DNA of 26,781 bases from Betaproteobacteria bacterium (GTDB lineage Bacteria > Pseudomonadota > Gammaproteobacteria > Burkholderiales > Burkholderiaceae_C): positions 1-26,781 of the forward strand of contig VBDL01000058.1 of the NCBI GenBank assembly GCA_005884255.1, in the 5' to 3' direction. The position numbers and the translations under genes are program-made. Below the pieces are notes generated by a model that saw nothing but the letters and a program-made list of their open reading frames with translations, did no database searches and was not told where the DNA came from. Below, one piece after another: positions 12,222 to 17,300 of this stretch (the stretch's first letter is position 1; each line of letters begins with the position of its first letter).

Positions 12222-12280
12222 ACGATAGGCAGACGCCGCCGCACGCCATAGGTCCACGCCTGCGCATTCGATGGAACCAG
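12222..12280 (-). promoter_or_regulatory. Predicted TauR-activated promoter of the Dpp/amidohydrolase operon
   Basis: CTGGTTCCAT (12280-12271) and GTGGACCTAT (12257-12248) are 23 bp apart; TATCGT at 12227-12222. Same geometry as the tauX and tauA promoters. Confidence 0.7.
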
Positions 12281-12311
12281 AGGCTAGTGGTTTGCCCCAT
12301 GTGCGGGCGGC

Positions 12312-12331
12312 GTGGGGTCCATTGACCCCAC
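12312..12331. terminator. GC-rich hairpin immediately after the sorB stop; possible terminator
   Basis: GTGGGGTC-4 nt-GACCCCAC, a perfect 8-bp stem 1 nt after TGA. No U-tract. Confidence 0.4.
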
Positions 12332-12332
12332 T

Positions 12333-12650
12333 TCAGCGCGCCGCGCCGCTCGCCGTGGCCACGTAGGCGGCAATGGCCTGGATCTGCGCCTCCGACAGCG
12401 TGGCCTTGTACGACGGCATGTTGCCCAGGCCGTTGCGCAGCGCGTTGGCCACGCGGGCGGCATCCGGCTTCAGTTCGTCGAGCACCGGGCCGACCGCGCC
12501 CTCGCTGCCGGCGTCCTTCAGCGTATGGCACAGCGCGCAGGCGGGCGTGGCCTGTTGAAGGAAGAGCTTCCTGCCGAGCGCGAGCTCGTCGTCGGCATGG
12601 GCCGGCCGCACGACGAGCCCGGCCACCGCGAACAACAGGGCGTATTTCAT
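12333..12650 (-). CDS. sorB: Periplasmic monoheme cytochrome c, sulfite dehydrogenase subunit B
   Basis: ATGA-coupled to sorA. Signal peptide MKYALLFAVAG..., heme motif CALCH, distal Met in GNMP; 105 aa. Confidence 0.88.
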   Translation of the reverse strand: MKYALLFAVAGLVVRPAHADDELALGRKLFLQQATPACALCHTLKDAGSEGAVGPVLDELKPDAARVANALRNGLGNMPSYKATLSEAQIQAIAAYVATASGAAR

Positions 12651-13815
12651 GCGACGTTCACCTTCATCGCGTGATCGTCCCAACTGGTGTTGCTGTAGCC
12701 GCTGACGTTCTCGACGCGCAGCTCGGGCTGCACGTTGCCGGCCGCATCGGTGGCGCGGCTGGCGAGCGTGTGGCTGCCCGGCGGCAGCGTCGCATCGATG
12801 ACGAACTGGCGCCACGCGAAGGCCCCGAGGTCCGGCCCGAAGAAGCGCGCTTCGCGCCAGGTCCGGCCGCCGTCGACGGACACCTCGACCTTCTTCACCG
12901 CATGCACGCCGCCGAACGCCACGCCGTGGATCTGCACCGCCCCGGCGGCCAGCGTGCCACTGTCGGGATGCGGCGAATTGATCCACGACTTGACGCCCAT
13001 CTCCAGCACCGAGGGCTGGCTCGGGTCGGCCTTGCCGCCGGGCGGCGTGACGCGGTAGCCGTGCGACATGATCTTGGCGTCGGTCTCGGTGGCCGTGAAC
13101 GCCAGGCGCTTGATGTACTTGATGTTGTTCACGCCCTGGTAGCCGGGCACGATGAGCCGCAGCGGCCCGCCGTGCGCCAGCGTGAGCGGCGCGCCATTCA
13201 TCTCCCACACCAGCATCGCGTCGGCCAGCGCCTTCAGCGGCACCGAGCGCTCGACGATGATGCTCTTCGGGTCCACGCCCTCGGGCAGCTTCTCGCCGCC
13301 GGTGCCGGTGACGTAGAGCATGCCGTCGGCCACGCCGCCGAGCGATCGCGCCACCGTCTTCAGCGGCACGCCGCTCCACAGCACGCAGCCGGCGGCGCCC
13401 ACGCTCCACGGCGTGCCGCTCGGCTTGCTGGGGAAGAAGCCGCGGCCGTTGCCCGAGCACTGCAGCACGGTGGCCACCGTCTCCAGGCCCAGCGCCTTCA
13501 GCTCGCGCAGCGTGAGGCGGCGCGGCTGCTTGACGCCCTCGATCGCGATCTCCCAAGCGTCGCGGTCGGACAGGATGGAGGCGTCCGGCGCCGGCAGGTT
13601 GTTGCGCACGTAGAGCTGGTCGGACGGCGTGATCACGTTTCGAGCGTGCTCGCGCTATGCACGATCAGCGCGTTCGCGTCCTTCCACGAGGCGTAGGCCG
13701 GCAGCGGCTTGGCGGCGGCCTGTGCCGACGCATCGGTCCAGCGGCCGAGGCCGGCGGCGGCGAGCGCGCCGGCAGTGCCGGCCAGCAGGTGGCGGCGCTT
13801 CAGTGCAGGAGTCAC
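12647..13815 (-). pseudogene. sorA: Sulfite dehydrogenase molybdopterin subunit (sulfite oxidase family), frameshifted near 13635
   Basis: Tat signal MTPALKRRHLL... running to HSASTLET*. Continues in another frame as ITPSDQLYVRNN...LQCSGNGRG (Mo-binding Cys)...HGGPLRLIVPGY...KYIKR. Confidence 0.88.
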
Positions 13816-15618: not shown

Positions 15619-15645
15619 GGTGGGTCCTCGGGTTCCGATGCGTGC

Positions 15646-15704
15646 AGCGTAGGAGCTGCGCGCAGCGGGCCGTAGCGCCAGATGCCCGGATTCGGTAGAG
15701 CCAG
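15646..15704 (-). promoter_or_regulatory. Predicted TauR-activated promoter of tauXY-sorAB
   Basis: CTGGCTCTAC (15704-15695) and CTGGCGCTAC (15681-15672) are 23 bp apart; TACGCT at 15651-15646. Confidence 0.78.
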
Positions 15705-15714
15705 TCGGCCGCCG

Positions 15715-17211
15715 TCAGCGCGCGAGCTCGTGCACCACCTCGGCCAGCGCGCGGATGCCCGGCGCGATCGCCGCGCTCGGGATCGCGGTGTAGCCGAGGC
15801 GGAAATAGGGCGCCGGCGGCGGGTCGGCCATGAAGAACACGCCGCCCGGCTCGATCAGCACGCCGCGCTCGCGCGCGCGCTCGGCCACCGTCACCGCATC
15901 CAGCGGGTCGGGCAGTCGCACCCAGCACGAGCCGCCGCCCGATACCGGCACCACCTGGCACTGCGGCAGCTCGCGCGCGAGCGCCTCCATCAAGAGCGCG
16001 GCGCGCTCGCGCTGCGTGGCCGCCAGCCGGCGCAGCATCGCGTCGAAGTGGCCGAGCGAGAGGAAGAGGGCGAAGCTGCGCTGGATGTAGGCCGGCGGGT
16101 GGCGCAGCATCAGCCGGCGCAGCGCGCGCAGCTCGGCGATCAACTCGGCCGGGCCGACGATGTAGCCGATGCGCAGCCCCGGCGCGAAGGTCTTCGACAG
16201 GCTGCCGATGTAGATGACGCGGTTGCTGCGGTCCAGGCTCTTGAGTGCCGGCGTCGGCTCGCCCTCGAAGCGGTTTTCGCTTTCGTAGTCGTCCTCGATG
16301 ACGATGAAGTCGGCCTCGTCGGCCAGCTTCAGCAGCGCCTCGCGGCGCGGGAGCGGCATCGTCACCGTGGTCGGGCACTGGTGGCTGGGCGTGGTGTAGA
16401 CGAAGTCCAGGCCGCGCAGCGCGTCGCTCACCGGCAGCCCATGCTCGTCCACCGCCAGCGGCACGAGCTGCGAGGTGCGGCTGGCGAAGATGTTGCGCGC
16501 GTCCGGGTAGCCCGGGTCCTCGATGCCCACGCGCGTGCTGCTGCGCATCAGCAGGTCGGCCACCATGTACAGCGCGTGCTGCGCGCCCACCGTGACGACG
16601 ATCTCGTCGGCCGACGCCCACACGCCGCGCCGCGGCAGCACGCGCGTGCGGATCTGCTGCACCAGCGTCTCGTCGTCGCGCGTGATCTGGTCGGGCGCCC
16701 AGTCGCGGATGTCGAGCACCGACAGCGCCTTGATGCAGCACTCGCGCCAGTCGGCGGTGGGGAACAGCGACGCGTCGAACTGGCCGTAGAGGAAGGGGTG
16801 CGGGTACTTCTGCCAGTCGGCCGGCTTCACGATGCTGCGCTGCAGCGCCGGGCGCTGCGTGAAGCGCTGCGACCAGTCCGGCGCGCCGCGCCGCGGCGGC
16901 TCGTGCGCCACGCGCTCGGCCGGCGCGCGGCCGGGCACCATGTCCGCGTTGACGAAGTGGCCGCTGCGCTGGCGCGACACGAGGTAGCCCTCGTCGGCCA
17001 GCTGCTGGTAGGCGAGCACGACGGTGTTGCGCGCCACGCCGAGCTGGTCGGCCATCTCGCGGCTGGACGGCACCGGTACGCCCGGCGGCAGCTGGCCGTC
17101 GAGGATGGCCGACACCAGCATCTCGCGGATCTGGCCCTGAAGGCTCATGCTGTCGCGCGCCGAGCGCTGCAGCAGCTGCTTCCACATCGCCTCGTTCAGC
17201 TTCTGCGCCAT
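15715..17211 (-). CDS. tauR: MocR-subfamily (GntR HTH plus PLP aminotransferase-like) regulator of taurine genes
   Basis: wHTH (PSSREMADQLGVARNTVVLAYQQLADEGYL), YTTPSHQCPT, IEDDYE, GSLSKTFAPGLRIGY (PLP Lys); located between tauX and tauA. Confidence 0.92.
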   Translation of the reverse strand: MAQKLNEAMWKQLLQRSARDSMSLQGQIREMLVSAILDGQLPPGVPVPSSREMADQLGVARNTVVLAYQQLADEGYLVSRQRSGHFVNADMVPGRAPAERVAHEPPRRGAPDWSQRFTQRPALQRSIVKPADWQKYPHPFLYGQFDASLFPTADWRECCIKALSVLDIRDWAPDQITRDDETLVQQIRTRVLPRRGVWASADEIVVTVGAQHALYMVADLLMRSSTRVGIEDPGYPDARNIFASRTSQLVPLAVDEHGLPVSDALRGLDFVYTTPSHQCPTTVTMPLPRREALLKLADEADFIVIEDDYESENRFEGEPTPALKSLDRSNRVIYIGSLSKTFAPGLRIGYIVGPAELIAELRALRRLMLRHPPAYIQRSFALFLSLGHFDAMLRRLAATQRERAALLMEALARELPQCQVVPVSGGGSCWVRLPDPLDAVTVAERARERGVLIEPGGVFFMADPPPAPYFRLGYTAIPSAAIAPGIRALAEVVHELAR

Positions 17212-17241
17212 GGCGCTTCTCTCATGGTTTTCCCGATGTGA

Positions 17242-17300
17242 TTGGTCTCAGTGAAACCCGGGAACTGGCACTACAGCCAAAGAAGAGGGCCGCCCACACT
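17242..17300 (+). promoter_or_regulatory. Predicted TauR-activated promoter of tauABC; overlaps the divergent tauR upstream region
   Basis: TTGGTCTCAG (17242) and CTGGCACTAC (17265) are 23 bp apart; CACACT at 17295-17300. Confidence 0.72.

Follow-up and report, generated by a model that had tools for sequence, protein, structure and literature searches.

Does the taurine regulator TauR of a Variovorax-like soil bacterium control, besides genes for taurine uptake and oxidation, an operon for a peptide-type ABC transporter and its amidohydrolases, and what would such an operon bring into the cell? The question is raised by a 26,781-nt stretch of DNA (the window, contig VBDL01000058.1 of assembly GCA_005884255.1), in which a sequence-only reading had placed three promoters of identical geometry, one upstream of tauX, one upstream of tauA, and one upstream of an operon that begins with a gene for an SBP_bac_5 substrate-binding protein (SBP). 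That reading called the last the Dpp operon and assigned all three to a TauR regulon. The window has a G+C content of 69% and is one contig (C552) of the 852 in a 4.06-Mb assembly (4,059,082 bp) that is 77% complete. Its source is a soil metagenome-assembled genome near Variovorax, in the Comamonadaceae, and a sequencing-run search recovered the window sequence from soil metagenome DNA runs only and from no RNA runs. We hold with good confidence that the three sites are TauR operators, as predicted from their sequence, which would activate the units tauXY-sorT-cytochrome c, tauABC-tauE, and the SBP operon, the substrate of the last most likely being an N-acylated taurine.

Each site consists of two 10-bp boxes followed by a -10-like hexamer. 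Upstream of the SBP gene, on the minus strand, box 1 (CTGGTTCCAT, 12271..12280) has conserved counterparts in front of the SBP orthologues of related loci, and box 2 (GTGGACCTAT, 12248..12257) and the hexamer TATCGT (12222..12227) follow it. The tauX site is also on the minus strand, with box 1 (CTGGCTCTAC, 15695..15704) lying 10 bp past the tauR stop codon, box 2 (CTGGCGCTAC, 15672..15681), and the hexamer TACGCT (15646..15651). The tauA site is on the plus strand in the 115-bp divergent region between tauR and tauA, where box 1 (TTGGTCTCAG, 17242..17251) is 31 bp from the tauR start codon and is followed by box 2 (CTGGCACTAC, 17265..17274) and the hexamer CACACT (17295..17300). When re-read from the sequence, the anatomy described by the sequence-only reading was borne out in full: TGG at positions 2-4 and A at position 9 in six of six boxes, a distance of 23 bp from the start of box 1 to the start of box 2 in all three pairs, an NGAA opening in all three spacers, and, in all three sites, a hexamer placed exactly 30 bp downstream of the first base of box 2 (+30). 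The repeats are direct, their spacing is roughly two helical turns, and the same spacing holds throughout the related promoters described below. The available text of Suvorova and Rodionov (2016; PMC5320631), to which our statements about that paper are limited, describes MocR regulators as having divergent targets and as binding direct repeats that share one DNA face at a distance of two or three helical turns. The -35 candidates formed by the last three bases of box 2 and the next three (TACGGC, TACAGC, and TATGGC) are poor, and no consensus match to a sigma-70-type promoter was found between 12000 and 17500 on either strand, an absence that is expected of activator-dependent promoters.

How unusual is this arrangement within the genome? 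The shared pattern (TGG, A9, GAA, TGG, A9) occurs three times in the assembly, each time inside the window, and its reversed control does not occur at all. Base composition predicts about 0.5 occurrences, and the count is circular because the pattern was derived from all three sites. With GAA dropped and NANNNT required at +30, there were six occurrences where base composition would predict 1.6, and three of them are these sites. To avoid the circularity, we trained a log-odds matrix on 61 unique tauX and tauA sites, all from other genomes, and ran it over 8,063,636 positions. The tauX site ranked first genome-wide, and the SBP-operon site, whose class had no part in the training set, ranked 6th with the boxes only and 10th with all 33 positions. 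Several of the other top matches fell inside coding-like open reading frames (ORFs). The stop-to-stop ORF filter also covers true promoter sites and therefore cannot by itself prove a match to be coding; the three top matches that it left open, on contigs C637 and C797, looked like coding sequence when read directly. A paired motif that recurred at random through the genome would have undercut the regulon, as the sequence-only reading had recognized, and the scan found no such frequency. An unweighted match count was also tried and then replaced by the matrix: the tauX and tauA sites have 21 positions in common, of which the SBP-operon site matches 14, a score equaled or exceeded at about 900 places, and the count was uninformative in a GC-rich genome.

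Conservation in related loci gave a second, wider view of the same sites. We gathered 79 related loci from a scan of genome contigs with the SBP, mostly from Variovorax and other Comamonadaceae; these loci are kin, and the fractions drawn from them are descriptive, not independent trials. An earlier search of 60 relatives, one per genus, had found the SBP in two other genomes only. The usual locus carries tauCBA and tauR on one strand, with tauX, tauY, the SBP gene, two permeases, two ATPases, COG1574, and COG523 on the other, and tauY lies directly upstream of the SBP gene in 55 of the 79. The promoter sequences were aligned by anchoring them at the best box pair. The tauX promoters (48 unique) have the consensus CTGGCtcGgtCGAat, a variable stretch, and CTGGC-N-CTAt, with NANNNT at +30 in 90% and TACGCT as the most frequent hexamer. 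The tauA promoters (31 unique) read CTGGCtCCAt, a spacer, and CTGGtaCTTc, with NANNNT at +30 in 94% (CAAAGT, CACAGT, CACATT). In the SBP promoters (50 unique) the consensus is CTGGccC, a spacer, and TGGctCt, NANNNT stands at +30 in 76%, and TATCTT or TATCGT occupies that position in 31 of the 50. At offsets other than +30, NANNNT stayed below 30% in each of the three promoter classes. Information content peaked at the boxes and hexamer and fell almost to zero in the intervening 20 bp, a profile that, as judged from the alignments, points to selection on these elements and not to a recent shared origin of the region in its entirety.

Whether the SBP operon has its own promoter depends on where it lies. 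We scored the presence of an SBP promoter with a minimal pattern, a TGG pair plus NANNNT at +30, whose background rate was 1.1% (17 of 1580 segments of 300 bp drawn at random from these loci). It was found in 24 of the 35 loci with a gap between tauY and the SBP gene of at least 95 bp and in none of the 20 with a shorter gap, as expected if the operon there is co-transcribed with tauXY. It was also present at 18 of the 23 loci that have no tau gene upstream.

These figures bear directly on the possibility that the third site is a chance match, in which case the SBP operon would be expressed only by read-through from tauX or from a LysR-controlled promoter. The unweighted match is indeed ordinary, with those roughly 900 equal or better places elsewhere in the genome, a scan found no terminator between the cytochrome c and SBP genes, and the 20 short-gap loci carry the operon close behind tauY with no site of its own. 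But a chance match would have to take sixth place among 8.06 million positions under an independently trained matrix, recur with boxes and hexamer in most long-gap and unlinked loci against the 1.1% seen in random segments, and keep its boxes where the surrounding DNA has diverged. We consider this very improbable. Read-through may still occur beside the operon's own promoter: with no canonical terminator present, some transcription from tauX could continue into the operon. A perfect 8-bp G+C-rich hairpin with a 4-nt loop and no U tract lies directly past the cytochrome c stop codon (12305-12331, minus strand). Whole-fragment folding gave z = -2.0, and the hairpin may be a transcript-end or stabilizing structure between the tauXY-sorT unit and the SBP operon.

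Which protein would recognize the operators? The gene tauR (15715..17211, minus strand) is divergent from tauABC and directly upstream of tauXY. It encodes a MocR-subfamily regulator of 498 aa, in which an N-terminal GntR winged helix-turn-helix (PF00392, residues 25-87) is joined to a C-terminal class-I aminotransferase-like domain (PF00155, residues 201-480). No close paralogue was found in the assembly, the next best match being 35% identical. The consensus CTGGACYTAA, in direct repeats, which the sequence-only reading had given for Rhodobacter capsulatus TauR, is stated in PMC5320631, citing Wiethaus et al. 2008, and about 7 of its 10 positions agree with the box consensus found here, CTGGC-N-CTA-Y. 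The regulator of the R. capsulatus tpa promoter is likewise a MocR activator, and the boxes share CTGG and the C/T-T-A that follows. In the window, however, position 5 is C and not A and position 10 is a pyrimidine and not A, a comparison made by consensus only. The orientation of tauR in the window, on the tauX strand and divergent from tauA, is the reverse of that in most relatives. The window TauR is 70-71% identical to the TauR of loci L016 and L082, where tauR also sits on the tauX strand. With the TauR of most Variovorax loci, in which tauR and tauX diverge, its identity is only about 49%. One and the same box motif accompanies both types of TauR.

True operators need not mean activation by TauR. 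The regulator could act as a repressor or roadblock, or a different MocR/GntR protein of like specificity could occupy the SBP site. Self-repression from the same sites is common among MocR regulators (PMC5320631), a second regulator such as the TauR2 of that paper could be missing from an assembly that is 77% complete, and the operon lies apart from the tau genes in 23 related loci. However, the TauR proteins of R. capsulatus and Sinorhizobium meliloti are activators according to PMC5320631, the geometry of the SBP site is identical to that at tauX and tauA, catabolic promoters that taurine must switch on, a usable -35 is absent at all three promoters, and the assembled part of the genome holds no paralogue above 35% identity. 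We judge either version improbable. TauR-type control of the SBP operon is instead well supported in silico by the matrix rank, the conserved boxes and hexamer, and the adjacent MocR regulator, in line with what the sequence-only reading had claimed for the Dpp operon.

How would TauR act at these sites? From the geometry we infer TauR binding, start sites, and activation as follows. Transcription would start about 7 nt after the hexamer, so that box 2 would cover roughly -42 to -33, and box 1 roughly -65 to -56. Box 2 would then occupy the -35 position, where a usable -35 element is absent, and TauR with pyridoxal phosphate (PLP) and taurine would recruit RNA polymerase there. The class-II activation proposed by the sequence-only reading is a plausible reading of this geometry, with box 2 predicted to lie over the -35 position. 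A GabR of this kind is reportedly known from Bacillus subtilis: work by Belitsky in 2004 is said to have described a MocR activator at gabT with two direct repeats on one DNA face, in a site that reaches the -35 region of the activated promoter and overlaps GabR's own promoter. The GabR repeats are said to be about three helical turns apart, and the effector to be GABA. The window repeats, 23 bp apart, differ from that spacing, and the repeat sequence and the effector differ as well.

Three units would be switched on. The first is tauXY-sorT-cytochrome c, all on the minus strand, which would convert taurine to sulfoacetaldehyde and oxidize sulfite. The taurine dehydrogenase genes are tauX (SnoaL-like, 15235-15618) and tauY (FAD oxidoreductase, 13812-15230), whose families, PF07366 for TauX and COG665 for TauY, follow the assignments of PMC5320631. 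A SorT-type sulfite dehydrogenase gene (12647-13811, NCBIfam match) and the gene for its cytochrome c (12333-12650) follow, separating tauY from the SBP gene. Neither of these two genes had a match in any of the 79 related loci (tblastn, E 1e-20). The second unit, on the plus strand, is tauABC-tauE, for taurine uptake and sulfite export: the taurine ABC transporter genes tauABC (17327-19998; tauA matches TIGR01729 with 392 bits, over the cut-off) are divergent from tauR, and the sulfite exporter gene tauE (20018-20782) lies downstream of them. A gene for a GAF-GGDEF-EAL signaling protein stands at 21037-23679 (plus strand), downstream of tauE. The third unit would be the SBP/ABC/amidohydrolase/COG523 operon, and taurine freed by its products would induce all three promoters, forming a product-driven positive loop. 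TauR probably also regulates its own gene, given that the tauA operator is located 31-63 bp upstream of the start codon of tauR. Beyond the window, the xsc gene for sulfoacetaldehyde acetyltransferase is on contig C385 (2092-3128; locus L097), where it is spread across two reading frames and truncated at the end of the contig. The xsc promoter is a likely fourth TauR target.

What does the third operon do? All of its genes are on the minus strand. The SBP gene (10601-12193, with its start codon at 12193) comes first. Behind it are two ABC permease genes, one at 9602-10579 and one from 8664 to about 9600, and two genes for ATPases with oligo_HPY tails, one from 7633 to about 8660 and one at 6554-7636; all were recognized by Pfam. 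Next are a 400-aa amidohydrolase of the PRK05985 or cytosine-deaminase-like group (5347-6549; 506 bits, over the cut-off), a NaaS-like COG1574 (Amidohydro_3) amidohydrolase (3606-5197), and a NaaT-like CobW/COG523 metallochaperone GTPase (2623-3586). A LysR-family regulator stands in the naaR position (1692-2654, Pfam), and a second SBP_bac_5 protein gene, whose product is 75% identical to the first, lies after it at the contig end (2-1525). The order of LysR gene and second SBP gene is like that of naaR and naaA in Ruegeria pomeroyi and suggests a second transporter unit past the window.

Taken together, the SBP operon and the LysR gene contain the eight naa gene types naaA, naaB, naaB', naaC, naaC', naaS, naaT, and naaR, as judged by Pfam families against the SPO0657-0664 list. 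In R. pomeroyi, SPO0657-0664 is the naa cluster, with naaT as a putative metallochaperone, naaS as an amidohydrolase, naaR as a LysR regulator, and naaA, naaB, naaB', naaC, and naaC' as an ABC transporter (PMC4334477). The naa genes were characterized in Cupriavidus necator H16 (Denger, Lehmann and Cook 2011, as cited in the available text of PMC13335735), and the R. pomeroyi cluster was assigned by homology; the likeness to both is one of gene content. Regulation differs: C. necator and R. pomeroyi have naa clusters whose designated regulator is NaaR, of the LysR family (PMC4334477), whereas the window and most Comamonadaceae loci have TauR-type boxes, with the operon usually behind tauXY. 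The window also has, unlike the naa clusters, the PRK05985 amidohydrolase and the second binding protein. Since the operon keeps a near-constant place behind tauXY, taurine is the product to be expected, and N-acetyltaurine thereby becomes the best candidate substrate; on this analogy the operon most likely imports and hydrolyzes N-acylated taurine. The sequence-only reading had taken the operator as the main evidence for a taurine-derived substrate. That ranking does not hold, since the position of the operon behind tauXY in 55 of the 79 loci and its naa gene content are at least as strong.

A more serious alternative keeps TauR as the controller and changes the substrate to another taurine amide, a taurine-containing peptide, or a GABA-related compound. 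The SBP belongs to a peptide/nickel/opine family and has neither a specific model nor a solved relative. NCBIfam, the PDB, and the source names of homologues gave no names more specific than amidohydrolase or peptide/nickel binding protein, and a PDB search found no solved relative of known function for the NaaS-like amidohydrolase, whose likeness to the characterized NaaS comes from family and gene content. The cytosine-deaminase-like amidohydrolase recurs in six of the 79 related loci (L029, L030, L037, L057, L064, and L086), the window encodes two binding proteins that are 75% identical, and Suvorova and Rodionov (PMC5320631) read the transporter as a link between GABA and taurine metabolism. 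Set against this are the item-by-item naa match (SBP, two permeases, two ATPases, amidohydrolase, putative metallochaperone, and LysR) and the tight linkage to tauXY, which makes taurine the expected product. An N-acetyltaurine degrader, strain NAT of Mayer and colleagues (2006), reportedly belongs to Delftia acidovorans. This species is also one of the two published Comamonadaceae cases of the regulon (PMC5320631). We regard a different substrate as rather unlikely, and N-acylated taurine is preferred; given the PRK05985 enzyme and the additional binding protein, other taurine amides are still conceivable.

Several genes of the window are broken, as is xsc on contig C385, and we read the breaks in COG1574, COG523, SorT, and xsc as assembly artifacts, with direct support for COG1574 only. 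About 22 codons are missing from COG1574, with a change of frame at 4096/4097. Outside this gap both parts match an intact 552-aa protein of another assembly with 100% identity, and contigs of two other runs (X1 and X2) stop exactly at 4096/4097. On these two grounds the idea that the NaaS-like gene is a pseudogene was rejected, and the break looks like an assembly join. In COG523 the N-terminal part (3440-3586, with an ATG at 3586), which carries the P-loop GGFLGAGKTT, is in a different frame from 2623-3492, with a shift near 3495. SorT matches its NCBIfam model only from profile position 63, and a twin-arginine signal, KRRHLL, lies near 13800 in another frame, which points to an apparent frameshift near 13640. 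Among the run contigs aligned to the window, none of those listed spans this break. Read depth is about 5-fold.

A number of points weigh against our reading. For this organism the evidence is purely in silico, and the percentages from kindred loci overstate independent support. The hexamers are weak, matching TATAAT at 3 or 4 of 6 positions. The best NCBIfam model for the regulator is the PdxR equivalog NF052282 (354 bits against a cut-off of 320), so that the name TauR comes from context and motif and not from a specific model; automatic annotation would label this context-defined TauR as PdxR. On the side of function, the amidohydrolase homologues carry generic names only, and the PRK05985 amidohydrolase is foreign to the naa clusters as listed in PMC4334477. 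The missing terminator has been mentioned above, and the LysR regulator of the cluster may be the main or an additional controller of the SBP operon.

How much of this is new? Suvorova and Rodionov (2016) placed OppABCDF, COG1574, and COG523 in the TauR regulon of the Comamonadaceae, and their table lists these targets in Verminephrobacter eiseniae (Veis_4287) and Delftia acidovorans (Daci_5672). The Comamonadaceae TauR regulog of RegPrecise described there (PMC5320631) agrees with the window in regulator type, direct-repeat motif, and targets (tauABC, tauXY, and OppABCDF with COG1574 and COG523), and TauR control of the SBP operon is accordingly a rediscovery, in another genome, of a published computational prediction from 2016. 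Compared with that regulog, the window has sorT and cytochrome c between tauY and the SBP gene, and tauR is reversed. The fixed 30-bp distance to the -10-like hexamer and the link to N-acetyltaurine are not mentioned in the available text, which suggests a GABA connection instead. Four things are added here by sequence comparison and analogy: the fixed 30-bp distance to a conserved -10-like hexamer in each of the three promoter classes, the finding that the third promoter depends on the tauY gap, the persistence of this promoter at unlinked loci, and the identification of the 'Opp' genes, which look like the naa gene set.

Relative to the published predictions the finding is an incremental gain. 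It gives base-level promoter and operator coordinates for the taurine regulon of an uncultured soil Comamonadaceae bacterium, and it joins two literatures, the comparative-genomic one on Opp/COG1574/COG523 and the biochemical one that defined the naa genes. If the exact 30-bp distance from box 2 to the -10 hexamer holds as it appears to in three unrelated promoter classes, it would amount to a positional rule for MocR activation. With slightly less than even confidence we further propose that, throughout the Comamonadaceae, a product-sensing TauR directly drives an operon for the uptake and hydrolysis of N-acyl-taurines, mostly without LysR and through a rigid 30-bp architecture, and that the extra hydrolase and SBP could widen its range. 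If the Opp genes are indeed naa genes, N-acylated taurines would be a regular entry to taurine catabolism in Variovorax and its relatives.

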